Under the pieces are notes generated by a model. The model was given only the letters and a program-made list of their open reading frames with translations, did not search any database and was not told the DNA's origin. A stretch of DNA of 21,861 nucleotides from positions 1 to 21,861 of the IMG/VR virus record IMGVR_UViG_2579778633_000005; one strand, written 5' to 3'. Both the position numbers and the translations under genes were made by a program. This document shows, piece after piece, positions 1,009 through 21,861 of the stretch (position 1 is its first letter; every line of letters begins with the position of its first letter). Source of the DNA: a virus (lineage: Duplodnaviria > Heunggongvirae > Uroviricota > Caudoviricetes).

Positions 1009-1083
1009 GTCCTCTTAGTTAAATGGATATAACGAGCCCCTCCTAAGGGCTAATTGCAGGTTCGATTCCTGCAGGGGACACCA
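1009..1083 (+). tRNA. argW: tRNA-Arg, anticodon CCU
   Basis: 75-nt sequence GTCCTCTTAGTTAAATGGATATAACGAGCCCCTCCTAAGGGCTAATTGCAGGTTCGATTCCTGCAGGGGACACCA. It has a 7-bp acceptor stem, anticodon loop CU-CCU-AA, T-loop GGTTCGATTCC and encoded 3' CCA. Matches the known argW attachment site of KplE1/Sf6-type integrases. Confidence 0.9.
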
Positions 1084-1208: not shown

Positions 1209-1244
1209 GTGGATAAAATAATTTTACCCACCGGATTTTTACCC

Positions 1245-2399
1245 ATGCTCACCGTTAAGCAGATTGAAGCAGCAAAGCCGAAAGAAAAACCATACCGCCT
1301 ACTCGATGGTAATGGCCTGTACCTTTATGTCCCTGTGTCAGGGAAAAAGGTATGGCAGCTTCGCTACAAGATTGACGGTAAGGAGAAAATCCTGACCGTC
1401 GGAAAATATCCGCTTATGACTTTGCAGGAGGCAAGGGATAAAGCATGGACTGCGAGGAAAGACATCTCGGTTGGCATCGATCCGGTAAAAGCAAAAAAGG
1501 CTTCGTCTAACAACAATTCCTTTAGCGCCATTTACAAGGAATGGTACGAGCACAAGAAGCAAGTCTGGTCAGTAGGCTATGCAACTGAACTTGCCAAAAT
1601 GTTTGATGACGACATTTTACCCATCATCGGCGGTCTTGAGATTCAGGATATTGAGCCGATGCAACTGCTGGAAGTAATCCGCAGATTTGAAGATCGCGGT
1701 GCAATGGAGCGAGCCAACAAAGCCCGCAGAAGATGCGGCGAGGTTTTCCGTTACGCTATTGTCACCGGCAGGGCTAAATATAACCCGGCACCTGACCTTG
1801 CTGGCGCCATGAAGGGGTACCGCAAGAAGAACTTCCCGTTTCTTCCTGCAGACCAGATCCCGGCATTCAATAAAGCACTGGCAACATTTTCAGGAAGTAT
1901 CGTATCGCTCATTGCCACCAAGGTTTTACGCTACACTGCCCTAAGAACGAAAGAGCTTCGTTCCATGCTATGGAAGAACGTCGATTTTGAAAACAGAATT
2001 ATCACCATCGACGCCAATGTGATGAAGGGACGCAAAATTCATGTGGTCCCGATGTCAGACCAGGTGTTTGAACTTCTCACTACGCTAAGCTCAATCACCA
2101 AACCAGTATCAGAGTTTGTTTTTGCCGGGCGCAACGATAAGAAGAAGTCAATCTGCGAGAACGCGGTACTGCTTGTGATCAAACAAATCGGCTATGAGGG
2201 TCTGGAAAGCGGTCACGGATTCAGGCATGAATTCAGCACGATTATGAACGAGCACGAATGGCCTGCCGACGCCATTGAAGTGCAACTGGCACATGCCAAC
2301 GGCGGTTCTGTGCGCGGGATTTACAACCATGCGCAGTATCTCGATAAACGCAGGGAAATGATGCAATGGTGGGCGGACTGGCTTGATGAAAAGGTGTGA
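1245..2399 (+). CDS. intS: Tyrosine recombinase, phage integrase of the IntS (KplE1/Sf6/HK620) type
   Basis: The ORF track begins at a GTG at 1209; I prefer the ATG at 1245 (MLTVKQIEAAKPKEKPYRLLDGNGLYLYV), which matches the N-terminus of K-12 IntS as I recall it. C-terminal catalytic region carries HGFRHEF and the RGIYNHAQY tyrosine motif. Directly follows the tRNA. Confidence 0.85.
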   Translation: MLTVKQIEAAKPKEKPYRLLDGNGLYLYVPVSGKKVWQLRYKIDGKEKILTVGKYPLMTLQEARDKAWTARKDISVGIDPVKAKKASSNNNSFSAIYKEWYEHKKQVWSVGYATELAKMFDDDILPIIGGLEIQDIEPMQLLEVIRRFEDRGAMERANKARRRCGEVFRYAIVTGRAKYNPAPDLAGAMKGYRKKNFPFLPADQIPAFNKALATFSGSIVSLIATKVLRYTALRTKELRSMLWKNVDFENRIITIDANVMKGRKIHVVPMSDQVFELLTTLSSITKPVSEFVFAGRNDKKKSICENAVLLVIKQIGYEGLESGHGFRHEFSTIMNEHEWPADAIEVQLAHANGGSVRGIYNHAQYLDKRREMMQWWADWLDEKV

Positions 2400-2402
2400 G
2401 TT

Positions 2403-2442
2403 GTTGAGCGCAAAATTTGAATATTTTTGATTTGCACTCAAC
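2403..2442. repeat. Imperfect 12-bp inverted repeat (GTTGAGCGCAAA / TTTGCACTCAAC, 16-bp spacer) just after the int stop
   Basis: 11 of 12 positions pair; no T-run on either strand, so not a canonical intrinsic terminator. Possible RNA hairpin or protein-binding site. Confidence 0.3.
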
Positions 2443-2561
2443 CACAACAATTGAATATCCAGAAAATTATTAATGATTATTCATTTTTTTGTCAAGTTAT
2501 GTAATAAATCCTATAGCATACGACGATACTTGGATTGATTAACGCCGCCAAGCTGCATGGT

Positions 2562-2613
2562 ATGCATGAGATGCCATTTAAAGCATCATGTTGCGCAATC
2601 ACATCTCATGCAT
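2562..2613. repeat. Perfect 12-bp inverted repeat (ATGCATGAGATG / CATCTCATGCAT) with 28-bp spacer containing palindrome TTGCGCAA, 30 bp beyond the tailspike stop
   Basis: Read directly from the sequence; lies in the convergent int/tailspike intergenic region; no T-run. Confidence 0.3.
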
Positions 2614-2642
2614 ATTAATAATATTCATACAACGCAGAACAG

Positions 2643-4730
2643 CTATCCTATAACAACCCCATCAGTTAAACTTGTTGGCGGAGACCCAAATTTCCTAACC
2701 AACTGTCCTGATGAGTTCCTGAATAGATAGAATTTGCTACCAAATTCCATGCATGGAATACCTGTTCCTGTGGTGGTAGCCAATCCGAGATTTGTTGCAA
2801 TGAATGCCTTTCCATCGAAATTAATAATATTGCTTACGTTATTTACCCCGTGGTAGTTTGAAATCGAGCTAACCCAGTCTAAAGCTGTAGTTTTTGGATT
2901 AGTAATGTTCAATGCATTTGCAGCGGCCGTCAGCTTGTCTATGCGCAGGTTATCGATAGTTACTTTTCCGTAGTTATCAATCGCCAAAGCAGTGGCAGGG
3001 TTACGTATATCGATGTTACGTCCTACAAACTCGCTAATGTTCTTTATTCTCGGAGCGGTTTTAATTCCGGTCAAGGTGCAAGTATAGTTCTCGACTTTGA
3101 CGACCCCAAAGGTATCTCCTCCGTTAGTCGTGTTTATACTGAGAGCATTCTGCACGTTTTCACTTGTTACATTTAAAATTTTAGCATCAATTACGCCAGA
3201 GTTCTCAATATTAACGTCAGCGTTAGCACCGTTTATGTACACACCATCGAGTGTAGCTTTACGAGTAAGTGGAGAGTTGCTCGGATACATGCTAATGATA
3301 ACCCCCATCGTATTATGACGAACTGATGGGTTATCTTCATCCTCTACCGTATTCTGGTGATAGATTCTTGTACCTTGCCCTATGTACACGTCATAGCTTC
3401 CAGATAGACGCATACCCCACTTGCCTTTCTTACTCCCGATATTGTTGCAATATGCACCGAGAACAACCCCAGACGATATCTGGAATACAGGGCTGCCGTC
3501 AGAATTGTCTTCAGAGGTCATCAATATTGGCTCTCTCCAGCGGGATACCTGATATGACCCGCCGATTACCTTGAAGTTAGCGGTACTGTAGAAGGCCATG
3601 CCGTTACGGTCAGTATCATAAGTGCGACAACGCGTCACCTGCACATCAGTACAGAACATAAACATTATCCCAGGTTGACCGCCACGAGAGCCATAAGCAT
3701 TAACAACCGAGCAGTCAGTTAATTTAATGCGAGTGGCCTGGTGGAACCAGAAACCATTAAATGTTGACTTATCTGATGCTGTGTCCCACGTCACATTAGA
3801 CTTATTACCATCAATAATAAGCCCATTTACCGTGATATCATAATGCTCTGGCGTTTCAGCGTCATAACTATAGCCTTTACGGTTTGTAATACCTGTAGAT
3901 ATGCCAAGGTAGCTTCCGGGCTTAAGCTTAAGTGTGCACCCGTAGGCGTCAATGGTCGTTCCTGTTTTAACAATTAAAGGTGTCCCGTCCCAGTAAATTG
4001 TTCGTGCGGGGAAATGAACAAGAGGCGATCCTGAATTTAGAGCGGCATTAATTGCAGCAGTATGGTCTCCAGCATAATCCATCTCAGGGGTAATAAATTG
4101 TTCAACGCTGACCGGTACGCCATATCCACGCTGTGCATTGCCAACACATTTCCAGTTCGAATCTGGTGACGATCCAGCTAAGACATTTATTGGATAAGGA
4201 AACGTCCCATTGTACTGATAGTGGTAACCATCACTATATAAAGCCACATCTTTACTGTCATTTAGCGTCCCGCCAGAAACGAAACTAGCTATTCTTTTAT
4301 AATACGATTCAAGATAGTCACTATATACATTACCGTTGTATGAACTACCAACAAGCTTATCTCCTCCATTGGTGGTTATTTCCTGTCGTAATTGATCAGG
4401 GTCATACTTCAGTACATTAGGAAAATAGAACTGCTGAGCACCGTAAGCATCATATACAGCCATAGAATGGCCTTGCACAGTTACGAACTTAGCAATCTGT
4501 CCGTTATATACAGGGTAACCAGCAGCGTTAAGGATGATTGGTTGCGAAACAGGAACGTGAGAACCGTCTTCGTTCTCCACATAAACCTGAACCTGGTTTT
4601 CAGGATTTACCGGGTCAGTGTCAATTTTACCGATATAAATTTTGCCATTAGCTACAGCTTTAAAAGAACGCGCCATAGTGAAGAGTTGCGATGGCATGCT
4701 TACCACAACATTGGCTGTAATGTCTGTCAT
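2643..4730 (-). CDS. Tailspike protein (695 aa): P22 gp9-type N-terminal domain fused to a divergent receptor-binding/depolymerase domain
   Basis: First ~110 aa ([113 protein letters not shown]) are near-identical to the P22 tailspike head-binding domain as I recall it. The remainder is Gly/Asn/Thr-rich and unrelated to the P22 receptor domain. Confidence 0.85.
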
Positions 4731-5564: not shown

Positions 5565-5698
5565 ATTACTTTCCGTTTTGTTAGAATCAGAAAGATCTTA
5601 ATAATAAAAAGTATTTTCGTGAAGATATTGTCGATTGAGTTAATAACTCATTTACACCCAACAGTGCCATGATGGCAAAGATAAGGAGAGTTAATCAT

Positions 5699-6184
5699 AT
5701 GAAAAAATCACTGTTAATTATCCCGCTTCTGCTGGCAGGGTGTGCAAAGGTTAGCGACTATCAGGAAAATTGCGAACAACGCTATCCAAAGCTTAGCGAT
5801 ATGGCTAATTGCCTTGATGCTAGCGTGAAGAACGACTCACGCATGGCATCAGCACCAACACCTAAGTTATATGTCCTTGCTGCGAAGATGCTCGGGCAAG
5901 GTGTCGATGATGGCAAGATAAGTGACGCGCAGGCAAGACTTGAGCTTCAGAATCTTTATGTTCAACTACAAAGCCAAGAACAAGCCCAACAAATAGCGCA
6001 AAGCCAAGCATTCCAGCAGGCTTTATTGAATTATCAGGCTGTAAACACAATGCAAGCGATCGAGCAAAAAGCGAGACAGCCTGTTATAACTCAACCCTAT
6101 CCAACACGAGTTGACACTTACACAAACTGCAATTCAGGGTTTGGAAATACAGTCACATGCAACAGTAGCAGTAACATCAGATAA
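5699..6184 (+). CDS. Predicted outer-membrane lipoprotein (161 aa) with Gln-rich coiled-coil-like segment, function unknown (moron)
   Basis: Start chosen at ATG 5699, with RBS AAGGAG at 5683-5688, rather than the track's 5669. Signal peptide MKKSLLIIPLLLAGC with lipobox LAGC and Ala at +2. Divergently transcribed from the neighbouring lipoprotein gene. Confidence 0.55.
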   Translation: MKKSLLIIPLLLAGCAKVSDYQENCEQRYPKLSDMANCLDASVKNDSRMASAPTPKLYVLAAKMLGQGVDDGKISDAQARLELQNLYVQLQSQEQAQQIAQSQAFQQALLNYQAVNTMQAIEQKARQPVITQPYPTRVDTYTNCNSGFGNTVTCNSSSNIR

Positions 6185-6274
6185 CAATCAGCAAAGGTAT
6201 CGCCTATGCAGAGGGATAAGATAAACCTCGCGTTCTACATATTTGGTTTTTGCACGTTCCTGGTGTTTGAAAAG

Positions 6275-8272
6275 CTATTCTGACAACGCATCAGACTTAG
6301 CCCCCTGCGTCATAGCGTTAATTGCCTTTTGTGCCTGCTGCATGGCTTTCTCAAACGCTGTTGATCCGCGTGGGGTGTTTGCCATTCGGAGCATTGCATT
6401 TCTGAATGGCTCGCTCTCATAGGCGCGAGTAAGAAGTCCGTAGCTTACTGCTGCGCCAGTTGTCGCCGGGTTCATTGCCGTCCCATACCCAATAATGAAC
6501 GGGATAGTTTGCTGTCCTGTGGGTGTTGTTACTGCCGCTTTTGCAGCCTGCTGCGTGGATTGCAGGTAGTTTTTTAATCCTTTCAGATAAGCAGCGTCCT
6601 GCCCCTTAAATGTGATGCCAGTCTGGTTTTGCAGGATGTTAAGCTGCCGAAGGAACTGGTCAGGGGATCCGCCAGATTTCTCCATCGCCTTTCCAATGAT
6701 GCCATTGCGCATTTGCGCCCTGCCAACACGACCAACTGAGTTATACAGCGTCTTAATTTCCGATTTGTTCTTGCTGAATAGCATGTTGTTGACGACTTCC
6801 GGCGTCAGGTCGCCTTTCATGAGAACATTCTTCAGCCTTGTATTCTTTAGTTTCGCCGCTTCGTCAGCGTAGACGGCATTGGCCTGCTGATATTTACGGA
6901 GAGTATCGTTGCCAAGATTCTGACCAATGGCACCATTGATATCGTCAGTCATTGCCTTGTAAACGCGTTGAATGGCAGCATCGGAACGGTTTGGTAACAC
7001 TGGTCGCTCACCCTTCACGTCCATTCTGAACTGGCTGCGCAGGTCGCTTAATTGCTTCAAATCCAGATTTACCGGACCATCAGGGCCAGCATTGCGAACA
7101 AGCTCATCACGATATGACTGAAGTTTTGAAATTGTCTCGTTATCAGCTACCTTACCAAGCTTCTGCAGATTAGATATCTCAGTATCAATCTGCTGAATTG
7201 CTCGCGCAGGCTGGATATTGACTCCCGCCATTGCATTCTGAACTTGCTCAAGACGGTTCCCTGCAGCACGACGAATTCCTGATGTTTTCGCTTTAAGGCT
7301 GTCAATAACAACCGCTGGATCGTACTCGCCGAATTTATCAGCAAATCTCTGCACCAACTGGCTTCTCGCTTCCTGTTGCGTTGCTCTCATTCCGCTTGTG
7401 CCGGCCAGAGGGATATTTTCTGCTGTAGTCTGCGCCATTTTTCCGACGCGGGAAGTTGGTTGTAACAGGTCTGTGGTGTGCAGAGGAATTCCTTCACGCT
7501 CTGCAAATCTGATAGCCTGCTGCGCTTCTGGCGCTATCGAACCACGAACGCCACGATAAGCAGCACCTAATCCACGTCCGGAAGCGTTAATAGCACCGCC
7601 AGCAAGTACACCAACGCCTAAATCGGTGGCGAGTGCTTCCGCATCATCTTTCGCACTATTTGCAGCAAGTGATCCAACTGCGTTTTCTGCTAGAAGGCGA
7701 GTTGCCCCCTGAGCAATTCGACCAGCAAGTGTTGGTGCCTGTACCGCCGCTCTCTCAACGCCAGCAGGAGTGAGGTAAGGCAATGCTTCAGCAAATAACC
7801 TTCCCTCTGTCGTTTGTGGAGTCAGCGCACCTTGCTGAAGGCCAAAGTCCTGCTCTAATCCCTGCGTTGTTACTCGTGGTGCTGGTTGATATGTACCATC
7901 GCCAATACCGAGTTTACCGCCAGCCCAAGCCGCCGCGCTTGTTACAGCATCGGCAACTGATGCAGGTATGTTTGCCACGTTCACGCCAGCCTGCACCAGT
8001 CCGCGACCAGTCTCTTTTACTGCTTCACCAAGATCAGACATAAATCCACTTTGCTGTGGTTGTTGCTGTGCTACTGGTTGTTGTGTCTCCACTGGCTGCA
8101 CAGATGGCAATGGATAGGCAGCATAGAAAGCTTTCTTAGCCTGCTCTGCATTTTCTCCGGCTTGCGGGGCCACGACTTCATTGAAGTATTGCTCCTGAGC
8201 CTGCGCTTTTTGTTCTGGTGCTAACGCCTGATACTGTGGAGAGGCGATAACATCTTTCCATGCTTTAGCCAT
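6275..8272 (-). CDS. Injection (ejection) protein, P22 gp16 family (665 aa)
   Basis: Position in the conserved P22-like order gp7-gp20-gp16 just before the mnt/tailspike region; large Ala/Gln-rich protein. Start overlaps the stop of the upstream gene. Confidence 0.65.
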   Translation of the reverse strand: MAKAWKDVIASPQYQALAPEQKAQAQEQYFNEVVAPQAGENAEQAKKAFYAAYPLPSVQPVETQQPVAQQQPQQSGFMSDLGEAVKETGRGLVQAGVNVANIPASVADAVTSAAAWAGGKLGIGDGTYQPAPRVTTQGLEQDFGLQQGALTPQTTEGRLFAEALPYLTPAGVERAAVQAPTLAGRIAQGATRLLAENAVGSLAANSAKDDAEALATDLGVGVLAGGAINASGRGLGAAYRGVRGSIAPEAQQAIRFAEREGIPLHTTDLLQPTSRVGKMAQTTAENIPLAGTSGMRATQQEARSQLVQRFADKFGEYDPAVVIDSLKAKTSGIRRAAGNRLEQVQNAMAGVNIQPARAIQQIDTEISNLQKLGKVADNETISKLQSYRDELVRNAGPDGPVNLDLKQLSDLRSQFRMDVKGERPVLPNRSDAAIQRVYKAMTDDINGAIGQNLGNDTLRKYQQANAVYADEAAKLKNTRLKNVLMKGDLTPEVVNNMLFSKNKSEIKTLYNSVGRVGRAQMRNGIIGKAMEKSGGSPDQFLRQLNILQNQTGITFKGQDAAYLKGLKNYLQSTQQAAKAAVTTPTGQQTIPFIIGYGTAMNPATTGAAVSYGLLTRAYESEPFRNAMLRMANTPRGSTAFEKAMQQAQKAINAMTQGAKSDALSE

Positions 8273-9567
8273 TAATCACCCCATAGTGAAGAAAAGTTAC
8301 TGCCAGTAGTAGATTGTTGCCCTGGCATATTCTGAACCGGCTCCTGATAATCAAACTGTTTTTTAACAGTGCTCAACTTGCTTTCAAGCTGATTTCTAAT
8401 CTTTCCGATAGAGTCACGAAAAGCCTTTTCACTCATTTTGGGGCTTAGGGCACCAACCGCATCGGATAATTTTTTACCCTCAGCATCTGAAAGAGCGCCC
8501 ATACCCTTCAGGGACTGCACCATAGGAAGGAATGTTTGAGCTTTAAAGGTGTCGAGCCTTGCTTCAAAGTTAGCCGCATCAGAGCCAGGAACTGTCGGAA
8601 ACGCTGAGCGAATTCCTACTGCTTTTGAAAGGCCGGGGCTTTGCTCTATCTCGTTGAGAGAATCAAGCGCGGTGCTGAACGTATCAACTGCCCCCTGAGC
8701 GGCGGCCTGCCTGTCAGCGCGGGCTATGTCAGCCTTTTGCCGAACATCTGCCTGTTTCTGTTTTAGCTCTTCAAGCTTTAACTGATTGCTTTCTCTGGCT
8801 ATCTGTCTGTCCAGAGCCTTTTCTTGTAATTCTGCTCTTTGTATTTCGCGGGAAAGAGCAGCATTCTGTGCGCTGATGTTCTGTCCACGTATCTGGATGT
8901 CCTGACCACGCGCTGTTAGTGCTTCTCCAGCCTGATTGCTGCGGATTGTCTCTGCCAGCCTGCCTCGGTCAATTTCACGACCAGCCATCTTGTCCTGAAC
9001 ATTGAAGTAGTCAATCGGGCCAAGAGCAGCCATTCCAAGGTGATCAACAAACTCACCAAATCCTGAAGGATTCTGCTGATACATCTGAGCAACACTGTTA
9101 GGGTCAACACCGACGCGAGTCAGTTCCTTGGCGTTGTTTTGCAGCCATGATTGCATTGCTTCTGGAGACGATGACGCAAGGCGTGCGCCAGCCGCTAAGG
9201 TGCCGATAGAATTACGCTGATCTTCATCAATGAATCCCATGCCTTTACGAACGGATTCAATCTGGTCTGGATATTGAGTAGCCAACTGACGCAAAGCACC
9301 GCGATCACCAGACGCATAAGCATTAGCGTACGCCTGCTGAAATTCTTTCTGCCGCTGAGCCTGCTTTTCCTGCTGAAAAACACCCGCAATACCAGAAAGA
9401 CCTTGCAAAGCTGTCAGCCCAACATTGTTAGCGCCTGAACGCTCAATATCATTGTTCTGCCTGATAAGCTGAAGCGTGTTGCCGATGTCATTTACGCTCG
9501 GAGCGTTTGAGTTGACGCCGCCGATACCAGCCAACAATCCGCCATTTGATCCTTGCCAAGTAGCCAT
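8272..9567 (-). CDS. Injection (ejection) protein, P22 gp20 family (431 aa)
   Basis: Synteny between the gp7 and gp16 homologues; N-terminus MATWQGSNGGLLAGIGG is glycine-rich as in gp20-family proteins. Confidence 0.65.
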   Translation of the reverse strand: MATWQGSNGGLLAGIGGVNSNAPSVNDIGNTLQLIRQNNDIERSGANNVGLTALQGLSGIAGVFQQEKQAQRQKEFQQAYANAYASGDRGALRQLATQYPDQIESVRKGMGFIDEDQRNSIGTLAAGARLASSSPEAMQSWLQNNAKELTRVGVDPNSVAQMYQQNPSGFGEFVDHLGMAALGPIDYFNVQDKMAGREIDRGRLAETIRSNQAGEALTARGQDIQIRGQNISAQNAALSREIQRAELQEKALDRQIARESNQLKLEELKQKQADVRQKADIARADRQAAAQGAVDTFSTALDSLNEIEQSPGLSKAVGIRSAFPTVPGSDAANFEARLDTFKAQTFLPMVQSLKGMGALSDAEGKKLSDAVGALSPKMSEKAFRDSIGKIRNQLESKLSTVKKQFDYQEPVQNMPGQQSTTGSNFSSLWGD

Positions 9568-9576
9568 GATTACCCC

Positions 9577-10269
9577 TTAAAACAACGAGCCAAGCAATCC
9601 GATACCAGCACCAATGCCAGCGCCCCAAGGTGTTGATGTTTCCAAAAGGCTGGCAAGACCTGCACCGGCAATCGCACCGGACGTTCCGCCGCTAATTGCA
9701 GTCTGAAGACTTGATGGTTTATTGGCATTAGCAGCGGCAAGTGCTGCGCTTTGCTGTGCAATGCTGCTCATGTTGTTGGCGTACGTCTGCCCGGCGTTTG
9801 CCTGACCTTGCAGCGCACCAAGCCCAACGTTTGCCAGATTGTTGTAGTTGCTCATCTGATTTGATAACCAAGACTGACCGAGTGTCGGCGCGATCGTAGC
9901 CAGTTGATTGCTTGTGGCTGTCGAACCAAGTCCACCCGTCGCCTCCGCAGCAGCAAGACTCTGGTAACGCGCCTGCCCTGCAAGGTCTTTATACTGCTGA
10001 GAGTTGTAATACTGATTAAGTGCCTGCCCCTGACCTTCTAAACTGGAAAGGTTCTGAAGCTGGTTAACATACTGCTCCGCAAGAGGCGTGAACGGAGCAA
10101 GGTTTTTCATGATCGTCTGCCACTGCTGATTTTGCAGATCTGCAGCATACTTCTGAGCTTCTGCTGCATACTTTGCGCTTTTATCAGAACTGCCACCTTT
10201 CCCGCCTTTTTCAGGGCAATAAGGTTCCTCGCCGCGCAGTTTTCTGCCCAGCTTAAATGCATATAACAT
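9577..10269 (-). CDS. Injection (ejection) protein, P22 gp7 family (230 aa)
   Basis: MLYAFKLGRKLRGEEPYCPEKGGKGGSSDKSAKYAAEAQKYAADLQNQQ... and the Gly/Ala-rich C-terminus ...GIGLLGSLF closely match P22 gp7 as I recall it. Confidence 0.8.
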   Translation of the reverse strand: MLYAFKLGRKLRGEEPYCPEKGGKGGSSDKSAKYAAEAQKYAADLQNQQWQTIMKNLAPFTPLAEQYVNQLQNLSSLEGQGQALNQYYNSQQYKDLAGQARYQSLAAAEATGGLGSTATSNQLATIAPTLGQSWLSNQMSNYNNLANVGLGALQGQANAGQTYANNMSSIAQQSAALAAANANKPSSLQTAISGGTSGAIAGAGLASLLETSTPWGAGIGAGIGLLGSLF

Positions 10270-10271
10270 GG

Positions 10272-10727
10272 CTATCTCCTGTGATTCAGGAAGTCGATTA
10301 GTTCTTCGCGTGTGGCGCTGTAAAAAGTCACGTCATCCACGCCTTTGAAGTATTTCTTGATGGTTCCTACACGCTTAAGGCCAATCATTGCGCAGTACAT
10401 CTGCCCGTGGCGGAATTTGCGCGCAGCGAACGATGTGACGCACTGAACGGTGGTGTTAGTCAGAATGTATCGCCAGAACGCCAGCCCAATTTCCTTGCTG
10501 AAGCCGCGAATCTCTGGCAGGTACATGGCGTGGCAATCGAATGTCAGCGGCTGAATCTCCTGATAGTAAACAATGCCGCCGAACTGACCGTGCACGTTAA
10601 CCTCAAAGTAACGGCATTCAGGTTTGTAGTCGTATCCATCACCGTTGTTGCTCCCGGCGATAATGTCAGGGTGATTTCCTACGGCTTCTATCAGGTCGAT
10701 GTTTCGCGTTGGTTTGAATGTAATCAT
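10272..10727 (-). CDS. P22 gp14-position protein (151 aa), probable ejection-protein assembly factor
   Basis: Assigned by synteny between the tail needle and gp7 genes; translationally coupled (ATGA overlap with the upstream gene). No recognisable motif. Confidence 0.5.
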   Translation of the reverse strand: MITFKPTRNIDLIEAVGNHPDIIAGSNNGDGYDYKPECRYFEVNVHGQFGGIVYYQEIQPLTFDCHAMYLPEIRGFSKEIGLAFWRYILTNTTVQCVTSFAARKFRHGQMYCAMIGLKRVGTIKKYFKGVDDVTFYSATREELIDFLNHRR

Positions 10728-11428
10728 CAGTCAATCAGCCCATGTAATCTAAGTGCTGTTTCAAGCGCCAGAATACGCTGCCGCGCCTGCTCCAAACCTG
10801 TAGCGAGAGCTGCGACTTCGGATTGTGTGTACGTAGTGCCGACCGTGTATGACTGGTTAGCGTTGAATGAACCAAGAAGTGGCGTACCTGTGGCTGCAGT
10901 CCATCCGGTCTGCCTTGCTCCAACGACCTGAATTCCATCAACTGAATATGATGTTTTTACATCCAGCGGTGACGCAAGAGACTGCGATTCGGTTACGGTT
11001 TTCGATACGTAATCACTCTTAATGTCAGATACATCGCTTTCTACGTCATCCAGTCTTTGGTCAACAGTGACCAGATGCGCCTGAATATCGATAACCTCAT
11101 CCAGCAAGTAATCAACATCGCTACGCAGTACGACTATCTTCCCTTCGGCGGTTGTTAACCTGACCTCAAGGAGATTTATCGCTTTTGTGTTTGCGGTGAT
11201 TCTTGCATCGTGATCTGCCAGCTCGACGTCCTGTTCATCGTTTTTCACCTGAGCATCGTAAGCGCCCTGACCAGCCTGATTTGCCTTCCCGGCAATTGCG
11301 CCAACATCAGCACCCTGATTTATGACATACAGCATGTAAGACTGGCTGAATATATTGCGTGGCAAAATTGAAGCATCAAGGCGCGTAGCCTGAACCGCGA
11401 CAGGATTATTCAGTGATGAATCAACCAT
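10727..11428 (-). CDS. Tail needle protein, P22 gp26 family (233 aa)
   Basis: N-terminus [73 protein letters not shown] and C-terminal ...ALRLHGLID match P22 gp26 as I recall it; central coiled-coil region. Confidence 0.85.
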
Positions 11429-12846
11429 TACTCAATCCTTATCTGGCAGCCTGACAGAGTGACAGGTGACTTCGTGATAACGCGCAATTTGAAGCCGACA
11501 TTTTTCCTTATTCGCCCGACACGCTTCCACAAAACACGCTTGTCGTAAACGAACGGTTCATTCTGCTCAATCATCTGCTCACGCCCGTAATTGATGCCGT
11601 CAGTGGTTGCAGAGAGGAACAGGCGGTCAGCGTACTGAGCAACACCAGTCGATGATTCAACTTCCAGATCAAAACATCTGGCGTTCTCAGCTTTGAAGAG
11701 TGGTGTAAACAACAGGTGTTCTTGCTGTAGCCCATACTGGCTGCTGATATCGAACTGCAATTTGCCGATAACCGATTCCAGCTTATCTCCGCACGTTATC
11801 TGATTGCCTTCGTAAATGAAGTCGATAGCGCGGTACACATCGTCATACAGGCCTGTTTTCAGTACACACCATTGCGGACCATTGGCGCTTGAAGATGCGT
11901 CGTACACGAGAACATGGCGCGGAAGGTGGATAATCAGCAACTCATGAGCATCAAACCGCAACGATTCCATCACGCCATCAGCCAGTTCATCAGCAGTGTA
12001 GGAGCGGAGGATTTTCTCAATGCTCGCGCTGGCGATTGGTGATACCTGACCGGAGCCGATGATGTAAACAGACGGCGCACCTGTTGCCGGATTGCTGATG
12101 AACGCATACGAATCAGCAAACGGCGTTTTGCAGTAGGTTCCGGCGATTCCTTTTTGCACCATCAACGATGGCTGGGCGACATACAAAGCGGCACCAACAG
12201 TGGTTGCACCAGTCAGGGAAAAATATTCAATCGTCGATGAACCAAAGCAGACGATGAAGTCTCGCCATGTTCCGATGCCGATGATGCCGTCAGGCTGCGA
12301 TTCTGCGCGATATTGTGCGCTGTATCGGTCAGGATGTGATTCGTCTTCAAGGTCAGTGATAAACCATGAATCAGTGCCGTCTTTTGACCACGCATAACGC
12401 CCACGTAAGCGCGTAATGTCGCGTACTGAGCCTAACTCATACTGCGTGAATCCGCTGTCTGTAGGCCAGTTTGAGACGGTTTTAACCGTGCCATCATAGC
12501 GATACTCGACCAGTTTCCCGTTAACGCCTACCGCCTGTGATGTCCGACCATGCGCCATTGATACACGACCACTTCCGGCGACGTCACCGACTTCACTTTC
12601 GCCTTTGTACAGCTTGCCACCACACACGCGATAAACAGCATTCTGCGCCATGTTGTACTCGACGCCACGCGATACGCCGTTCACATCAGAACGTTTGGCA
12701 ATGCCCGGGAATGAGCGAAGATATCCGCTGCTGTTAAGGATTTCTTTTGGTGTAGCCAACATATTCACTGGCAGATAGTCGATATAGTCGGCGTTTCGGA
12801 AGTCTTTGCCGACACCTTTCATAAGCGGAAGTTGCTGAATCGGCAT
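11428..12846 (-). CDS. Tail accessory protein, P22 gp10 family (472 aa)
   Basis: Same length as P22 gp10 and correct synteny (gp4-gp10-gp26); start overlaps the upstream stop. Confidence 0.7.
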
Positions 12847-12905
12847 TTATTCACCTATGCGTTTGGGATATCGCCATCAATCAGAGGGAGATCGCCTGGA
12901 TAATA

Positions 12906-13337
12906 TCAGTCAGATGTAAACACGTCATATTTATTACCCTGTCCTACAGGAAAATCTCCACGTCGTCGCATTGAAGGAACAACCAGAGTGTCGGTCATCA
13001 AGGCATCATATGAGCGTTGGGCGTTACTGAGAACTTGCGGAGTTGGTTCAAGGCTGTAATCAGATAGCATTCTCAGCAATAACTGATAGCCTACTGCGTG
13101 TTTGTATTTTCTTGGAAGACCTGACTCATCATCTGGTAATGGCTGATCATCTCCAGTTGCGAAAGCGTAACCAATGTCGCCGGGGTTAATCATCCACTCG
13201 GACATCATATCTTCCAGATCATTTACACCATCTTCAATTGATTGCGGCTCAACATCAGTCAGCGATGCATTAGAAGCAATAGCAAACTTACGAAGCGCAA
13301 AAAGGACGATCTCACCCTTTGTCAGTACTGTTGCCAT
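12906..13337 (-). CDS. Tail accessory / head completion protein, P22 gp4 family (143 aa)
   Basis: N-terminus [48 protein letters not shown] aligns with P22 gp4 as I recall it ([32 protein letters not shown]...). Confidence 0.75.
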   Translation of the reverse strand: [143 protein letters not shown]

Positions 13338-13497
13338 TGTCTGCCGCCTTACGACCTCGCTTACTGGTCGGTTTCAATTCATCAACTGAGGCAACAAAGC
13401 CCAACCTTTCGAAAAACTGGAAGTCTTTTTCTGCGATAACGGCCTGTACATGCCCGGATTCGTTATCTGCGGCAAGGAATACACTCATCCGATCCAT
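13312..13497 (-). CDS. Small hypothetical protein (61 aa) between the coat and gp4 genes
   Basis: ORF begins 8 nt after the post-coat terminator and overlaps the gp4 start by 26 nt. Called on position only; P22-like phages such as Sf6 carry a small gene between coat and the gp4 homologue. Confidence 0.35.
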   Translation of the reverse strand: MDRMSVFLAADNESGHVQAVIAEKDFQFFERLGFVASVDELKPTSKRGRKAADNGNSTDKG

Positions 13498-13504
13498 ATT
13501 GTTT

Positions 13505-13534
13505 CCTTAAAACATAAAAGGGGCGTAAGCCCCT
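13505..13534 (-). terminator. Intrinsic terminator-like hairpin after the coat remnant
   Basis: Stem AGGGGC / GCCCCT with loop GTAA at 13519-13534, followed on the minus strand by TTTATGTTTT; begins 5 nt after the coat ORF stop. Confidence 0.5.
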
Positions 13535-13539
13535 TGTTA

Positions 13540-14106
13540 TTACGGATTACCGAAGAACTGACCGCCCATGTGAGGGTTAAAGCACACATATGCAGGCAGT
13601 AAGTCGAAGCGCATTTTTTGCACGTTGGCATCGCCATCTGCGTATTTATGTACGCGGATGGAGAAACCTTCATATGTTGCAACAGCAGAATCAATACTGT
13701 GCAGTTTCGGCAGTGGGATAGAGCCAAGTCCACAGAAGAACTTGTTATAGAACAGGTTTGGCTTCATTGTCTGGCTAGCAGTGCCTACTACAGATACGTC
13801 ATCGCCTGCATCTACCTGACGACTTACAGAGTTGTACTGCGGGTTTGTAGTGTCATAAATCGGAACACCAGAAAGCGTAACCGTCACATCGCCACCGCTG
13901 TCTGAATCAGCATCAGCAGTAACCGTTGCAGTGAAGCTAATTGGTGTGGCTCCGTTATACAACGCCTGTTTGGTCTGCTGTTGCAGCCAGTAGGTATTGG
14001 TGAATTTGACCTGATCACCAGCTTTCAGAAAACCTGTAACGCTGGCTTTCGCTCCGGTCAATGTTACAGTGAACTGGTACGGGGATTCATTCGGGCCAGC
14101 GCCCAT
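13540..14106 (-). pseudogene. Probable 3' remnant of the major coat protein gene (188-codon ORF), N-terminal part deleted
   Basis: Occupies the coat position just before the gp4 block but is less than half the ~425 aa of P22-like coat proteins. Its 5' end overlaps the 3' end of the truncated terS reading frame. Identity as coat is inferred from position, not from recognised sequence. Confidence 0.45.
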
Positions 14107-14405
14107 TTGCGGGTATCAACGCGAAGTCTTGCCTTTGCCACCTCGGCGGCATCTGGAATCGCAGTGTCAGCAATTTCGAATATCTCTTCGAAAATAGAAT
14201 CAGCTCGTGCCTCAGTTGCCTTCGCGTACTTGTCGCGAAAATCCTCATGCTTTGCCAACCAGCGGAAAACAGTGGACTTATCCGGCATACCAGGACGCTT
14301 ACATACTTTCAGCAAACTTTCGCCAGAAGAAAGCAACGAGCAGATATCGTCAGCCACCTCCGGCATATAATCAGAGGGGCGACCAGCTTTTGGTTCAGTC
14401 GCCAT
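14064..14405 (-). pseudogene. 5' remnant of small terminase subunit gene (113-codon ORF; frame lost after ...ARMNPR)
   Basis: MATEPKAGRPSDYMPEVADDICSLLSSGESLLKVCKRPGMPDKSTVFRWLAKHEDFRDKY... matches my recollection of the Sf6-type small terminase (~140 aa). The ORF ends early and is followed directly by a coat-like 3' segment; no terL, portal or scaffold genes are present. Confidence 0.5.
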
Positions 14406-14430
14406 ATTTATCTCACTTAATTGTCATTTC

Positions 14431-14608
14431 AGGTTGAGGACTCTTTCGCGCCTTCAATCAGTGACTGCTTCAGCAATTCGAGTGTGCCAATCGCCTCGCA
14501 TAAACTGATTTCACCATCGTAATCATGAATGACGCTTTCCAGCCGCTCGTATAGCTCTTGAGTAATTGGGAATTTCTTCTCCTTACCCAAATTGATTACG
14601 CGGCTCAC
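14431..14608 (-). CDS. Small hypothetical acidic protein (59 aa, GTG start)
   Basis: Hand-translated ORF (V/M)SRVINLGKEKKFPITQELYERLESVIHDYDGEISLCEAIGTLELLKQSLIEGAKESST, with GGAG 7 nt upstream of the GTG. Below the 60-aa cutoff of the supplied track. Immediately upstream of the terS remnant. Confidence 0.4.
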
Positions 14609-14609
14609 A

Positions 14610-14852
14610 TCATGCTCCGGTGGTGAACAGGTCTAACGCTTCCTTCGATTTACGCACCGCTTCAAATGTGCGGATCGTGATATCCGAATTAGCGCCACCT
14701 GACTGGAAGTGAATTTTGAATAGCTCAAGCTTCAGTTCGTCAGTGCCAATGAATTGAAATGCTTCTTCTGCGGCTGCGTTCTGGTTCATGACCAGTTTGT
14801 AAATCTCTAACTGGAATTTCTGTTCTTCAGTCATGGGAATAATCTCTGCCAT
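14610..14852 (-). CDS. Hypothetical protein (80 aa)
   Basis: ORF between the lysis cassette region and the terS remnant; no recognisable motif. Confidence 0.45.
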   Translation of the reverse strand: MAEIIPMTEEQKFQLEIYKLVMNQNAAAEEAFQFIGTDELKLELFKIHFQSGGANSDITIRTFEAVRKSKEALDLFTTGA

Positions 14853-15356
14853 TGTTGGCTCCGTTTATCCGTTAAAAGGGATATCAGTTAAGTTATCCCG
14901 TGTAGGGTATAAGCCATTGTCGAGACCACTCATTGAATGGCCTCTGCAATAACCGATGTCTTTCCATCAGTCCGCCACCACAAAGAATCTTTTTTGCCAT
15001 AAGGCTGGAGGTTCATCTTTCAGTGGCTGCCAGTGTTATTTCCCCACTTACTGGCTTGGGTTGCTTCGTGGTACTGCCGTAACTGGTGGTGCACAGATTT
15101 AGTTAAATCCGTTCTCGCATAATCCAGCTTTACATACCTGGATTGTGAGGGATGTAAATCACGGTTTCATTATCAAGCCCACCCGTAGATAGGCTTTGTA
15201 ATGACTGGCTCTTATCTCAACGCAGCCCCTTACCGCGCGCCAGATGCTCAACTTCAAGCATCAGCAATGAGATGTTTAATCTGGATTCACTCCAGAAGTG
15301 ATCACCACCCTGTCTACAGAGACAGATGTGAAGGATGATGAGTAAAATTATCGCTA

Positions 15357-15794
15357 TCATCGAAGGCATTGCGTCCTGATGTACTCCTGCAGGTAGTTAA
15401 CCTGCGCGGTTATCTTGTCGATTCCACTTCGGAGACGGTAATAATTGAGTTCAGCATCTGCTGTAAGTCTTGGGCTTTCTCCATCGCCCATGCTGCTGGC
15501 TCCGGCCGTTGACTTTGCACAGGTGGCGGCGACTTGCAGGCGCTTACGACCAGCAGAAACATCAGCACGGAGGCTTTCGATAGTCTCGTTAGCATCAGCA
15601 AGCTCCTTTGTGTATCTGGCGTCGAGTTCCGCTACATCACGTTGACGCTTCTGCATGTCAGCGATTGTGGATGCGGCCTTATCGCGCTGCTCTTTGTAGA
15701 TCATGGCGTTATCACGGTAATGATTAACAGCCCATGACAGGCAGACGATGATGCAGATAACCAGAGCGGAGATAATCGCGGTGACTCTGCTCAT
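15357..15794 (-). CDS. Rz: Spanin, inner-membrane subunit Rz (145 aa)
   Basis: [30 protein letters not shown]... matches the lambda Rz N-terminus; start overlaps the endolysin stop by 4 nt as in lambda. Confidence 0.85.
15410..15601 (-). CDS. Rz1: Spanin, outer-membrane lipoprotein subunit Rz1 (63 aa), embedded in the +1 frame of Rz
   Basis: Out-of-frame ORF wholly inside Rz; signal peptide with lipobox LVVSAC followed by a Pro-rich stretch ([16 protein letters not shown]), the classic Rz1 architecture. Confidence 0.7.
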
Positions 15795-16267
15795 ACCTCA
15801 ATCTCTCTGACCGTTCCGCCTGCTTCTTTGAATTTTGCAATCAGGCTGTCAGCCTTATGCTCGAACTGACCATAACCAGCCCCCGGAAGTGAAGCCCAGA
15901 TATTGCTGCAACGGTCGATAGCCTGACGGATATCACCGCGATCAATCATCGGCAAAGCGCCACGCTCTTTAATCTGTTGCAATGCCACAGCGTCCTGGCT
16001 TTTCGGAGAGAAGTCTTTCAGGCCAAGCTGCTTGCGGTAGGCATCCCACCAACGGGAAAGAAGCTGGTAACGTCCGGCTGCTGTTGATTTGAGTTTTGGG
16101 TTTAGCGTGACAAGTTTGCGAGGGTGATCGGAGTAATCAGTGAATAGCTCTCCGCCAACAATGACGTCATAACCATGATTTCTTGTTTTCTGACGTCCGT
16201 TATCAGTTCCCTCTGACCACGCCAGCATATCGAGGAACGCCTTACGTTGATTATTGATTTCCACCAT
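15791..16267 (-). CDS. R: Endolysin, lambda R-type lytic transglycosylase (158 aa)
   Basis: [62 protein letters not shown]... is essentially identical to lambda R as I recall it. Confidence 0.9.
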
Positions 16268-16574
16268 CTTCTACTCCGGCTTTTTTAGCAGCGAAGCGTT
16301 TGATAAGCGAACCAATCGAGTCAGTACCGATGTAGCCGATGAACACGCTCGTTATATAAGCGAGATTGCTACTTAGTCCGGCGAAGTCGAGAAGGTCACG
16401 AATGAACCAGGCGATAATGGCGCACATCGTTGCGTCGATTACTGTTTTTGTAAACGCACCGCCATTATATCTGCCGCGAAGGTACGCCATTGCAAACGCA
16501 AGGATTGCCCCGATGCCTTGTTCCTTTGCCGCGAGAATGGCGGCTAACAGGTCATGTTTTTCTGGCATCTTCAT
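16251..16574 (-). CDS. S: Class I holin, lambda S-type (107 aa) with dual-start motif Met1-Lys2-Met3
   Basis: [69 protein letters not shown]... is essentially identical to lambda S; 17-nt overlap with R as in lambda. Confidence 0.9.
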
Positions 16575-16801: not shown

Positions 16802-17323
16802 TTAATAAATAACCCATGTCTTATAGTTAAGAATTCCTGCAATTGTTGCTTTTGATACGCCGTACATTCTCGCCATTTCACGCTGTGACATTGATTTGCA
16901 CGCACGTATTTCTTTCACTTGCTCAGTAGTGAGTTTTGCACAATAGTGACGCTCACCACTGATTGGGTTTAGCAATCCTGACTTGCTTGCATGGACCATA
17001 TTCTGGCAGCCAGTAACCCACTCAAGATTATCTACTCTGTTGTCAGACTTGATTCCATTTATGTGGTTTACCTGCGGAAGCGAGTTTGGATTATCAATGA
17101 ATGCAGCCGCCACTAACCTGTGAATGTAATGTTTTTTAAGTGCTCCTTTGTCGCGGAGATTTACATACAAGTAACCATCACTATGATTAACAGGCTTAAG
17201 CCATCTGCCCTTCTGTAACCTTCCACGAGCATCAACTCTCGAATGAGAATAAACGCGGCCATCAGTAGTTACGGAGTATTTACCTTCATATCCTGCGATA
17301 TCTTTCGCTGTTTCGCTTAGCAT
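16802..17323 (-). CDS. HNH homing endonuclease (NUMOD4 + HNH_3 + C-terminal HTH; 173 aa)
   Basis: NUMOD4-like GYEGKYSVTTDGRVYS; HNH_3-like HRLVAAAFIDNPNSLPQVNHINGIKSDNRVDNLEWVT; C-terminal HTH-like ...SQREMARMYGVSKATIAGILNYKTW. RBS AAGGAG upstream. Inserted between lambda-like pR'/tR' sequence and lambda-like sequence upstream of S. Confidence 0.75.
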   Translation of the reverse strand: MLSETAKDIAGYEGKYSVTTDGRVYSHSRVDARGRLQKGRWLKPVNHSDGYLYVNLRDKGALKKHYIHRLVAAAFIDNPNSLPQVNHINGIKSDNRVDNLEWVTGCQNMVHASKSGLLNPISGERHYCAKLTTEQVKEIRACKSMSQREMARMYGVSKATIAGILNYKTWVIY

Positions 17324-17646: not shown

Positions 17647-18270
17647 CTAACGTGTGACCGCGTTCAAAATGTTGTCTGCGATTGACTCTTCCTTGTGGCA
17701 TTGCACCACCAGAGCGTCATACAGCGGCTTAACAGTGCGTGACCAGGTGGGTTGGGTAAGGTTTGGGATTAGCATCGTCACAGCGCGATATGCTGCGCTT
17801 GCTGGCATCCTTGAATAGCCGACACCTTTGCATCTTCCGCATTCTTTCTCAACAACTCTCCCCCACTGCTCTGTTTTTGCTATATCAACCGCACGGCCTG
17901 TACCGTGGCAATCTCTGCATCTTGCGCCCGGCGTCGCGGCACTACGGCAATAATCCGCATAAGCGAATGTTGCGAGCACTTGCAGTACCTTTGCCTTAGT
18001 ATTTCCTTCAAGCTTTGCCACACCACGGTATTTCCCCGATACCTTGTGTGCAAATTGCATCAGATAGTTGATAGCCTTTTGTTTGTCGTTCTGGCTGAGT
18101 TCATGCTTACCGCAGAATGCAGCCATACCGAATCCGGCTTGTGATTGCGCCATCCCCATAGCAGCCATCACATCAGTACCGGAAAGAGAGTCAGAAGCCG
18201 TGGCCCGTGGTGAGTCGCTCATCATCGGGCTTTTTGGCGAATGAAATTTAGCTACGCTTTCGAGTCTCAT
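17647..18270 (-). CDS. Q: Late gene antiterminator Q, lambda type (207 aa)
   Basis: MRLESVAKFHSPKSPMMSDSPRATASDSLSGTDVMAAMGMAQSQAGFGMAAFCGKHELSQNDKQKAINYLMQF... is essentially identical to lambda Q as I recall it, including the Cys-rich zinc-binding segment. Confidence 0.9.
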   Translation of the reverse strand: MRLESVAKFHSPKSPMMSDSPRATASDSLSGTDVMAAMGMAQSQAGFGMAAFCGKHELSQNDKQKAINYLMQFAHKVSGKYRGVAKLEGNTKAKVLQVLATFAYADYCRSAATPGARCRDCHGTGRAVDIAKTEQWGRVVEKECGRCKGVGYSRMPASAAYRAVTMLIPNLTQPTWSRTVKPLYDALVVQCHKEESIADNILNAVTR

Positions 18271-18814: not shown

Positions 18815-19101
18815 GACTTAATCTTCCCCTCCTTCAGCAGTATCGCCTGCGTCCTGATCACGCCTTCGAGGTGGTAAAGTCTGGCGTCTTTGTTGTCGAG
18901 ATTATGGGTACGTCGGTCGATTTCATCGTGACACGCGCTACAAGCCCATGCACCGATCAGGTCGTCAGGTTTCATTCCCGTTCCGCAAATTCCAACCATC
19001 CGGTAATGTGCCAGAACTGTAGTTTCAGGATTGCCATTGCATACGCCGTAAATACGTACCTGGCATTCTCTGCCGCGTGCTTCTTTGCGTAGGTTAGCCA
19101 T
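18811..19101 (-). CDS. YbcO-like DUF1364 protein (96 aa), Cys/His-rich putative nuclease
   Basis: MANLRKEARGRECQVRIYGVCNGNPETTVLAHYR...ACSACHDEIDRRTH resembles the DLP12 YbcO family as I recall it; nin-region synteny ybcO-rusA. Confidence 0.55.
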   Translation of the reverse strand: MANLRKEARGRECQVRIYGVCNGNPETTVLAHYRMVGICGTGMKPDDLIGAWACSACHDEIDRRTHNLDNKDARLYHLEGVIRTQAILLKEGKIKS

Positions 19102-19271
19102 TAAGCAGCCTCCCCTGTTACTTTCAGCATTCCGTTATCGAGCAGCTTTCTGGTCAGCCACTGTTGACCACGTCCGGTGATTTTTGTGGTGAACGATATC
19201 TGTATTCCGTGATTTGTGTTGGATAAGCTGTAGTGATCGAATGCCGGAAGACACCAAAATGTTACTGGCAT
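19101..19271 (-). CDS. Possible NinE-like small ORF (56 aa), possibly truncated at the nin/early-left junction
   Basis: Hand-translated MPVTFWCLPAFDHYSLSNTNHGIQISFTTKITGRGQQWLTRKLLDNGMLKVTGEAA; its stop overlaps the ybcO-like start (TAATG). Its first ~19 codons overlap the opposite-strand DUF551 ORF, so the start is uncertain. Confidence 0.25.
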   Translation of the reverse strand: MPVTFWCLPAFDHYSLSNTNHGIQISFTTKITGRGQQWLTRKLLDNGMLKVTGEAA

Positions 19272-19417
19272 TTAGTCAAGGTGAAATCGTGGCCGCATAT
19301 TGGAACTGGGTTGTAAATCCAATTGATTACAAAAAATATAGAGCTTTCACGTATTTATCAGGAAATATCTTGGATGACGTAACTCACTGGATGCCGCTAC
19401 CAGAGCCTCCACTTTGA
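19214..19417 (+). CDS. DUF551 domain protein (67 aa; TTG start at 19214 or ATG at 19241)
   Basis: Contains both DUF551 signature segments, WISCSDRMPEDTK and WMPLPEPP. Opposite strand to the nin genes, co-oriented with torI. Confidence 0.55.
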   Translation: MCWISCSDRMPEDTKMLLAFSQGEIVAAYWNWVVNPIDYKKYRAFTYLSGNILDDVTHWMPLPEPPL

Positions 19418-20261: not shown

Positions 20262-20462
20262 ATGCAACACGAACTACAGCCTGATTCCCTGGTTGATTTG
20301 AAATTCATCATGGCTGATACTGGCTTCGGTAAAACCTTCATATATGACCGGATTAAGTCCGGAGACCTGCCTAAAGCCAAAGTTATCCACGGGCGAGCAA
20401 GATGGTTATATCGTGACCATTGTGAATTCAAAAATAAGCTCTTAAGCCGCGCCAATGGGTAA
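20262..20462 (+). CDS. torI: Excisionase / recombination directionality factor TorI (66 aa, winged-helix)
   Basis: MQHELQPDSLVDLKFIMADTGFGKTFIYDRIKSGDLPKAKVIHGRARWLYRDHCEFKNKLLSRANG matches K-12 TorI as I recall it; located next to the attR core repeat, RBS GGAG 10 nt upstream. Confidence 0.85.
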   Translation: MQHELQPDSLVDLKFIMADTGFGKTFIYDRIKSGDLPKAKVIHGRARWLYRDHCEFKNKLLSRANG

Positions 20463-20535: not shown

Positions 20536-20550
20536 CTGCAGGGGACACCA
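20536..20550 (+). repeat. attR core: 15-bp direct repeat of the argW 3' end (CTGCAGGGGACACCA, tRNA nt 61-75)
   Basis: Exact match to 1069-1083; sequence beyond it does not match the attL phage arm, consistent with host DNA. Confidence 0.8.
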
Positions 20551-20991: not shown

Positions 20992-21861
20992 CTATATTGC
21001 TGAAGGTACAGGCGTTTCCATAACTATTTGCTCGCGTTTTTTACTCAAGAAGAAAATGCCAAATAGCAACATCAGGCAGACAATACCCGAAATTGCGAAG
21101 AAAACTGTCTGGTAGCCTGCGTGGTCAAAGAGTATCCCAGTCGGCGTTGAAAGCAGCACAATCCCAAGCGAACTGGCAATTTGAAAACCAATCAGAAAGA
21201 TCGTCGACGACAGGCGCTTATCAAAATTTGCCACGCTGTATTTGAAGACGGATATGACACAAAGTGGAACCTCAATAGCATGTAACAGCTTCACTAATGA
21301 AATAATCCAGGGGTTAACGAACAGCGCGCAGGAAAGGATACGCAACGCCATAATCACAACACCGATAAGTAATGCATTTTTTGGCCCTACCCGATTCACA
21401 AAGAAAGGAATAATCGCCATGCATAGCGCTTCGAGTACCACCTGGAATGAGTTGAGATAACCATACAGGCGCGTTCCTACATCGTGTGATTCGAATAAAC
21501 CTGCATAAAAGACAGGAAAAAGTTGTTGATCAAAAATGTTATAGAAAGACCACGTCCCCACAATAAATATGACGAAAACCCAGAAGTTTCGATCCTTGAA
21601 AACTGCGATAAAATCCTCTTTTTTTACCCCTCCCGCATCCGCCGCTACGCACTGGTGATCCTTATCTTTAAAACACATGTTGATCATCATAAATACAGCG
21701 CCAAATAGCGAGACCAACCAGAAGTTGATATGGGGACTGATACTAAAAAATATGCCGGCAAAGAACGCGCCAATAGCATAGCCAAAAGATCCCCAGGCGC
21801 GCGCTGTTCCATATTCGAAATGAAAATTTCGCGCCATTTTTTCGGTGAAGCTGTCAAGCAA
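20992..21861 (-). CDS. cscB: LacY-family oligosaccharide:H+ symporter, sucrose permease CscB-like; 3' portion only, 5' end beyond the window
   Basis: Hydrophobic multi-TM protein; ...LVKLLHAIEVPLCVISVFKYSVANFDKRLSSTIFLIGFQIA... aligns with the LacY C-terminal region and matches my recollection of CscB, whose csc locus maps near argW/dsd in sucrose-positive E. coli. ORF runs to the window edge; the first codon is not a real start. Confidence 0.6.
   Translation of the reverse strand: MLDSFTEKMARNFHFEYGTARAWGSFGYAIGAFFAGIFFSISPHINFWLVSLFGAVFMMINMCFKDKDHQCVAADAGGVKKEDFIAVFKDRNFWVFVIFIVGTWSFYNIFDQQLFPVFYAGLFESHDVGTRLYGYLNSFQVVLEALCMAIIPFFVNRVGPKNALLIGVVIMALRILSCALFVNPWIISLVKLLHAIEVPLCVISVFKYSVANFDKRLSSTIFLIGFQIASSLGIVLLSTPTGILFDHAGYQTVFFAISGIVCLMLLFGIFFLSKKREQIVMETPVPSAI

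Follow-up and report, generated by a model that had tools for sequence, protein, structure and literature searches.

The stretch of DNA analysed here (21,861 nucleotides; hereafter, the window) very probably carries a genuine internal deletion scar, located in a cryptic Sf6/HK620-type Lederbergvirus prophage at argW of Escherichia coli UCI 53. The chromosome of this strain is the carrier of the element, which is a prophage remnant of 19.5 kb at the tRNA-Arg gene argW, as compared with 38–39 kb for Sf6 and HK620. The scar, an attached pair of a terS 5′ remnant and a coat-gene 3′ remnant as proposed in the earlier note, was confirmed by Pfam, PDB, tblastn, and blastn alignments. The element as a whole is bounded by att cores and has lost genes essential for lytic growth through two internal deletions. 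A single illegitimate recombination event with a 2-bp TA microhomology would have removed 5,276 bp, with terS codon 110 and coat-gene codon 244 as the limits of the loss, and a second, independent deletion with a CAAC microhomology would have stripped the repressor, cro, N, recombination, and replication genes. The element is an ordinary cryptic prophage in stepwise decay and not a new kind of element.

Junction between the terS and coat remnants

Megablast of window positions 12800–15400 against phage records divided the region into two halves, one matching HK620/Sf6 up to terS and the other matching Sf6 from within gene 5 onward. In blastn, positions 14405–14078 corresponded to Sf6 nt 1–328 (98.8% identity) and positions 14079–12800 to Sf6 nt 5603–6882 (99.1% identity), and the HK620 alignment was broken at the same point as the Sf6 alignment. 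The E-values of these alignments are effectively zero, and chance is thus excluded for the matches. By three-way alignment with Sf6 and HK620, the deletion junction (junction 1) was placed at 14078..14079; the position of 14085–14095 estimated in the earlier note was close, being 7–16 nt off. The dinucleotide TA at 14078–14079 is common to the terS side (Sf6 nt 327–328) and the coat side (Sf6 nt 5603–5604), providing a 2-bp microhomology. The missing segment amounts to 5,276 bp, with the same gap relative to Sf6 and to HK620, and contains the terS 3′ end, terL, portal, scaffold, and the 5′ part of the coat gene. The absence of terL, portal, and scaffold genes between the two remnants, as previously claimed, holds for the entire window, in which tblastn with the Sf6 terL, portal, and scaffold proteins gave no match. 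Codon 110 in terS begins with Sf6 nt 328, and codon 245 in the coat gene begins with Sf6 nt 5603, so that the terS–coat fusion is out of frame and the terS frame ends four codons on. The two resulting minus-strand ORFs, 14064..14405 (113 aa) and 13540..14106 (188 aa), have 43 nt in common but lie in different frames.

The terS 5′ remnant (14079..14405, minus strand) comprises codons 1–109 of the 140-codon small terminase gene of Sf6/HK620-type phages; the small-terminase N-terminal sequence followed by a stop had been correctly recognised before, with a count of about 108 codons that is now revised to 109. The 113-aa ORF matched Pfam Sf6_terminase (PF20901) at positions 1–97 of 106 (E-value, 1e-39), and Sf6 gp1 (140 aa; PDB IDs: 4DYC and 3HEF) at residues 1–109, followed by TSSL and the stop. 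In tblastn with residues 1–109 of Sf6 TerS, the identity was 99.1%. Downstream of the junction, the ORF continues to 14064 through four out-of-frame codons (TSSL), which replace the last 31 residues of a full-length Sf6-type small terminase. It is a truncated piece of the Sf6_terminase family, and the possibility that it represents a full-length protein family of its own size is excluded. The small terminase fold consists of a DNA-binding domain of the helix-turn-helix (HTH) type at the N-terminus, a helical oligomerisation core, and a C-terminal β-barrel/tail (PMC9611059). Of these parts, the remnant keeps the DNA-binding HTH region and the greater part of the helical core, and is devoid of the C-terminal stalk and tail. 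The protein deposited for UCI 53 as KDG78713.1 ('hypothetical protein') is therefore to be regarded as a pseudogene fragment beside the deletion.

The coat (gp5) 3′ remnant (13540..14079, minus strand) is composed of codons 245–423 of 423 (14079–13543) and the stop codon, and accounts for the overlapping ORF in another frame that had been noted at the coat position with less than half the coat length. The 188-aa ORF matched Pfam P22_CoatProtein (PF11651) at positions 250–423 of 423 (E-value, 2.5e-58), residues 243–423 of the solved Sf6 coat protein gp5 (PDB IDs: 5L35 and 7SP4), and residues 245–423 of Sf6 gp5 with 97.8% identity (tblastn). Being a truncated piece of the P22_CoatProtein family, it is not a complete unrelated protein. 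The fragment lacks the N-terminal 244 residues (58% of the coat protein) and so falls short of the full 423-position profile. Residues 1–9 of the ORF (MGAGPNESP) come from terS DNA translated out of frame from an ATG that is there by chance, with no Shine–Dalgarno-like sequence visible before this ATG; the coat remnant itself retains no start. KDG78712.1, annotated as 'major head protein' in UCI 53, is likewise a pseudogene fragment beside the deletion. A terminator-like stem-loop at 13518..13535 (minus strand) matches the annotated coat terminator (t coat) of Sf6 at 6147–6173.

Integration site and host context

The window was 100% identical both to scaffold KK736529.1 of the E. coli UCI 53 assembly (GCA_000692815.1) and to a Logan contig that had been built from SRR1187805 in a separate assembly. 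Its left end is occupied by host yfdC (1–933), followed by the tRNA-Arg(CCT) gene argW (1009–1083; identified by ARAGORN), the 3′ end of which contains the attL core CTGCAGGGGACACCA (1069–1083, plus strand). This 15-bp sequence is directly repeated, in an identical second copy, as the attR core (20536–20550, plus strand), and is the annotated attP core of Sf6 and HK620. The integrase gene int (1209–2399, plus strand) encodes a protein 98.4% identical to Sf6 Int, and the excisionase/TorI homologue gene xis (20262–20462, plus strand), located just inside attR, encodes a protein 100% identical to the product of Sf6 gene 18; these two homologues are named intS and torI by PGAP. In the annotations of Sf6 and HK620, the attP core is located upstream of int, so that int adjoins the tailspike gene in the prophage, and the same arrangement is found in the window. 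argW is a known integration site for this phage group, Kapi1 included (PMC8787464). A fragment of host cscB (20992–21861, minus strand) is present outside attR, and the prophage bounded by the two att cores is 19.5 kb long.

In the cscB gene of UCI 53 (sucrose permease; ~2167–3414 of locus L004), codon 99 reads as a stop where the gene of E. coli strain 124, which is intact and encodes 415 aa, has Tyr. The 289-aa ORF at the right end of the window is thus a restart fragment of a pseudogene.

Second deletion in the early region

A second deletion junction (junction 2) was located at 19218..19221 by blastn against HK620 and phage HZ41 and alignment of the junction, with a 4-bp microhomology, CAAC. 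Window positions 19221–17512 correspond to the nin/Q region of HK620, starting from inside roi, and positions 20550–19218 correspond to the distal early-left region of HZ41 and HK620 containing xis/TorI, eag, and a DUF551 gene (blastn). In the sequence context of the junction (19101–19417), the DUF551 (hkaE-like) gene, of which the 3′ third is left (to 19417, plus strand), abuts the last 39 codons of roi (19104–19220, minus strand); only residues 202–240 of Roi survive (tblastn). In HK620 coordinates, ~11.7 kb is missing at junction 2, corresponding to the recombination genes, kil, cIII, N, cI, cro, cII, O, P, and ninA–F, and no tblastn match was obtained in the window for O, P, or ninF. The earlier note, while right about the loss of the head and packaging genes, had missed this deletion and thereby underestimated the degree of decay.

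Only 2–4 bp of sequence is shared at junctions 1 and 2, neither of which is accompanied by an insertion sequence or a long repeat. As judged from the two alignments, both bear the signature of illegitimate recombination, which may have proceeded through replication slippage or microhomology-mediated (alternative) end-joining. A terminase cut near pac in an abortive induction was also considered as the cause of junction 1, and found to be unsupported; in a related remnant (strain 124, described below), the deletion in this region starts outside terS.

The flanks of junction 2 are divergent in orientation, and the promoters pL and pR have both been lost. With the loss of pR and pL at this junction, Q is devoid of an evident early promoter, and the late operon would be left in the same state. 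It is most likely that the late operon is transcriptionally silent, with the surviving lysis and tail genes being carried as passengers, although read-through into the late operon from the direction of the upstream host cscB may occur. If the late operon is indeed silent, this would account for the tolerance of an intact holin–endolysin–spanin cassette without a repressor.

Surviving genes

Nineteen reference proteins were matched at full length in the window by tblastn. Full-length matches with 94–100% amino acid identity to Sf6/HK620 were obtained for gene 6, gp10, gp14, gp7, gp20, and gp16, and also for S, R, Rz, Rz1, Q, NinH, Rus, HkbD, Int, and Xis. The block for head completion, needle, and injection (6275..12846, minus strand), assigned by Pfam families and by full-length tblastn matches to Sf6 homologues (97.7–99.6% identity), consists of gp10 (11428–12846), the needle gp26 (10727–11428; the same length as HK620 gp26), gp14 (10272–10727), gp7 (9577–10269), gp20 (8272–9567), and gp16 (6275–8272), all on the minus strand, with gp10, gp14, gp7, gp20, and gp16 being full length. 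The lysis cassette (15357..16574, minus strand; full-length tblastn matches with 94–100% identity to Sf6) is composed of the holin S (16251–16574), the endolysin R (15791–16267), and Rz with embedded Rz1 (15357–15794). The late regulator Q (17647–18270, minus strand) is full length and 99% identical to HK620 Q, and is followed on the same strand by a pR′-like promoter (17604–17576) and a tR′ terminator (17542–17514), which were found by promoter and terminator scans, respectively, and by reference to the HK620 annotation.

Two stretches around the lysis cassette differ from the reference phages. A 173-aa homing-endonuclease-like gene with NUMOD4 and HNH_3 (16802–17323, minus strand) is located between tR′ and the holin gene, where Sf6 and HK620 are without it. 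The stretch of ~500 bp from hkbM (DUF2560) to Rz (14852–15357) contains only one ORF of 50 aa; its counterpart is occupied by hkbK (KilA-N) and hkbL in HK620 and by other genes in Sf6. The latter stretch is an ordinary mosaic difference with no mappable scar.

The tailspike (695 aa; 2643..4730, minus strand) is complete, with a P22-type head-binding N-terminus (Pfam Head_binding) and a different receptor-binding body. Residues 114–695, extending to the C-terminus, are 77.5% identical to a tail protein of the 158-kb Salmonella phage Se-B. To judge from sequence comparison, this mosaic points to a possible exchange of receptor-binding domains between very different phages.

The statement that a full set of tail, injection, and lysis genes has been kept is borne out insofar as the ORFs are full length, with a qualification for the gp4-type head–tail adaptor gene (12906..13337, minus strand), which encodes a 143-aa protein. 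In a codon-by-codon comparison with Sf6, codon 144 of 160 (window positions 12906–12908) was found to be TGA in place of CGA. The identical 143-aa protein is present on 373 contigs, and over a 100-bp probe the allele was shared by 17 complete genomes of E. coli, whereas identity across the probe was seen in none of 10 phage records. One of the 17 genomes is that of E. coli EC45, in which the 143-aa allele is carried by an apparently complete prophage at argW. Because of its occurrence on the 373 contigs and in the EC45 prophage, the TGA codon was withdrawn as a firm claim of a third inactivating lesion.

Because TerL, portal, scaffold, O, and P are absent, the element is unable to replicate, to package DNA, or to build capsids alone; the inability to package and to build heads had been claimed before, and follows from the missing terL, portal, and scaffold genes and the truncated terS and coat genes.

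Distribution and relatives

A 601-nt query spanning junction 1 was searched against 5,426 complete E. coli genomes, 328 of which matched one half or the other and none of which spanned both. The exact 24-nt string at the junction was absent from the GTDB species representatives, the JGI metagenomes, and IMG/VR, and the exact 113-aa protein was found on three contigs only. The absence of the junction from the searched collections indicates that the lesion is private and not a conserved architecture. It is probably also recent.

The element has the same gene order as Sf6 and HK620 (Lederbergvirus, P22-like), with 92–99% nucleotide identity in the alignable segments, namely int, the N-terminal part of the tailspike gene, and the injection, head-completion, lysis, Q, and nin genes. 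The attP core and the prophage layout with int adjoining the tailspike gene also match. Unlike these phages, it lacks the 5,276 bp for packaging and head formation and the ~11.7 kb of early genes, has a different tailspike body and an HNH/NUMOD4 gene upstream of the holin gene, and contains no oac. By synteny and identity, the element belongs with the Sf6/HK620-type Lederbergvirus prophages at argW, but its packaging/head module is reduced to terS residues 1–109 and coat residues 245–423. With this module incomplete, it is a defective derivative and not a functional member of the group.

Two other argW prophages with the 143-aa gp4 allele were compared with the window. The remnant in E. coli strain 124 (NZ_CP048344.1; locus L008, 15680–27639; ~12 kb) has the same insertion site and is 99.9–100% identical to the window in the segments 14612–15617 and 12776–13049, whereas its deletions are different and more extensive, with endpoints at early-left/mid-Rz, hkbM/mid-gp4, and gp10 start/immI region. 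In this remnant, terS, the entire coat gene, the 5′ portion of gp4, and gp10 through gp16 are gone; it looks as though a related prophage had decayed independently at this site. The full-length prophage of EC45 (NZ_CP059125.1), also at the same site, keeps terS, terL, portal, scaffold, coat, repressor, and replication genes, and differs mosaically from the window in other parts. Altogether, EC45, UCI 53, and strain 124 show full-, half-, and third-length stages of argW prophages sharing the gp4 allele. This pattern across strains is what is expected from stepwise, lineage-specific decay, and does not look like a conserved head-less architecture.

Alternative explanations

One explanation other than simple decay, which we regard as improbable, assumes a helper-dependent element or interference module. 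A superinfecting or co-resident phage with an HK620-type Q and an Sf6-type terminase might trans-activate the late operon, upon which a pac site in the retained terS could start headful packaging of the adjacent chromosome, or the truncated TerS and the coat fragment could poison the assembly of the invader. Q, pR′, tR′, and the late genes are all retained as this would require. According to PMC7672466, which cites Leavitt et al. 2013, recognition by Sf6 TerS is directed at a specific pac site. The part of terS coding for the DNA-binding domain is 98.8% identical to that of Sf6 in the window. The Sf6 pac site is reportedly located within the terS DNA that codes for this domain, and an Sf6-type pac site is therefore presumably still present in the retained terS DNA of the remnant. 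There is a slight chance that the Q–pR′–late operon and the pac-containing terS together constitute a platform that is trans-activatable under superinfection by a phage of the Sf6-terS/HK620-Q type. If they did, headful packaging in situ might lead to lateral transduction of the yfdC–mlaA–fadL side of the chromosome; alternatively, premature lysis together with dominant-negative fragments of TerS and coat might sabotage the invader. However, the proposal is purely inferential, the deletion is private to one lineage, and the frameshifted four-residue tail of the TerS remnant and the coat fragment without a ribosome-binding site look accidental.

It is highly improbable that the remnant has been domesticated as a tail-and-lysis module, a head-less element kept by the host for the usefulness of its tailspike, tail, or lysis genes, for example in forming a particle resembling a bacteriocin, in releasing vesicles, or in degrading O-antigen. 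In favour of this reading, the tail, injection, lysis, and Q genes are full length over ~14 kb while the head and early genes are gone, and Int, xis, and both att cores are intact. The full-length tail, injection, and lysis ORFs could be read as a sign of selection, but recent deletions would leave them full length just as well. Conservation of the architecture is lacking, as no complete E. coli genome among the 5,426 contains the junction and the strain 124 remnant has lost terS, coat, the 5′ part of gp4, and gp10 through gp16 via other deletions; in addition, regulated expression is not evident for a Q gene without pR and N. In podoviruses, tail assembly takes place on the portal once the head has been filled, and a free P22-type tail acting as a bacteriocin is not known, both of which argue against such a module.

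Two classes of known elements were rejected. A phage satellite (PICI/cf-PICI) is not compatible with the absence of a repressor, primase, or replication gene among the called genes, nor with the finding that, as far as the breakpoints, all segments consist of ordinary Sf6/HK620-type phage DNA. A tailocin was rejected on the grounds of the genome survey (0 of 5,426 with the junction), the loss of tail genes in strain 124, and the lack of a regulator upstream of Q.

An assembly artefact, with 5.3 kb passed over by the assembler in a prophage that is in fact intact, might account for a junction seen in one strain lineage only, but is extremely improbable, since the NCBI scaffold (2.5 Mb) and the independent Logan contig (36 kb) both carry the junction with 100% identity, the 2 bp common to both sides are far too short for a repeat collapse or k-mer misjoin, and the second clean deletion and the 15-bp att duplication fit a coherent biological remnant.

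For a cryptic prophage decaying by deletion, the main value of the present analysis is in annotation, in that the element should be labelled as a defective prophage. It also provides a base-resolved example of prophage decay via short-microhomology deletions, which is textbook behaviour and raises no new question. A comparable case, likened here by annotation, is CPS-53 (KpLE1) of E. coli K-12, a decayed prophage that occupies the same tRNA-Arg gene and has an excisionase of the TorI type and an integrase, IntS, closely related to that of the window; similarity to the cps-53 integrase is also noted in the annotation of HK620. CPS-53 differs from the UCI 53 remnant in its surviving genes and deletion endpoints.
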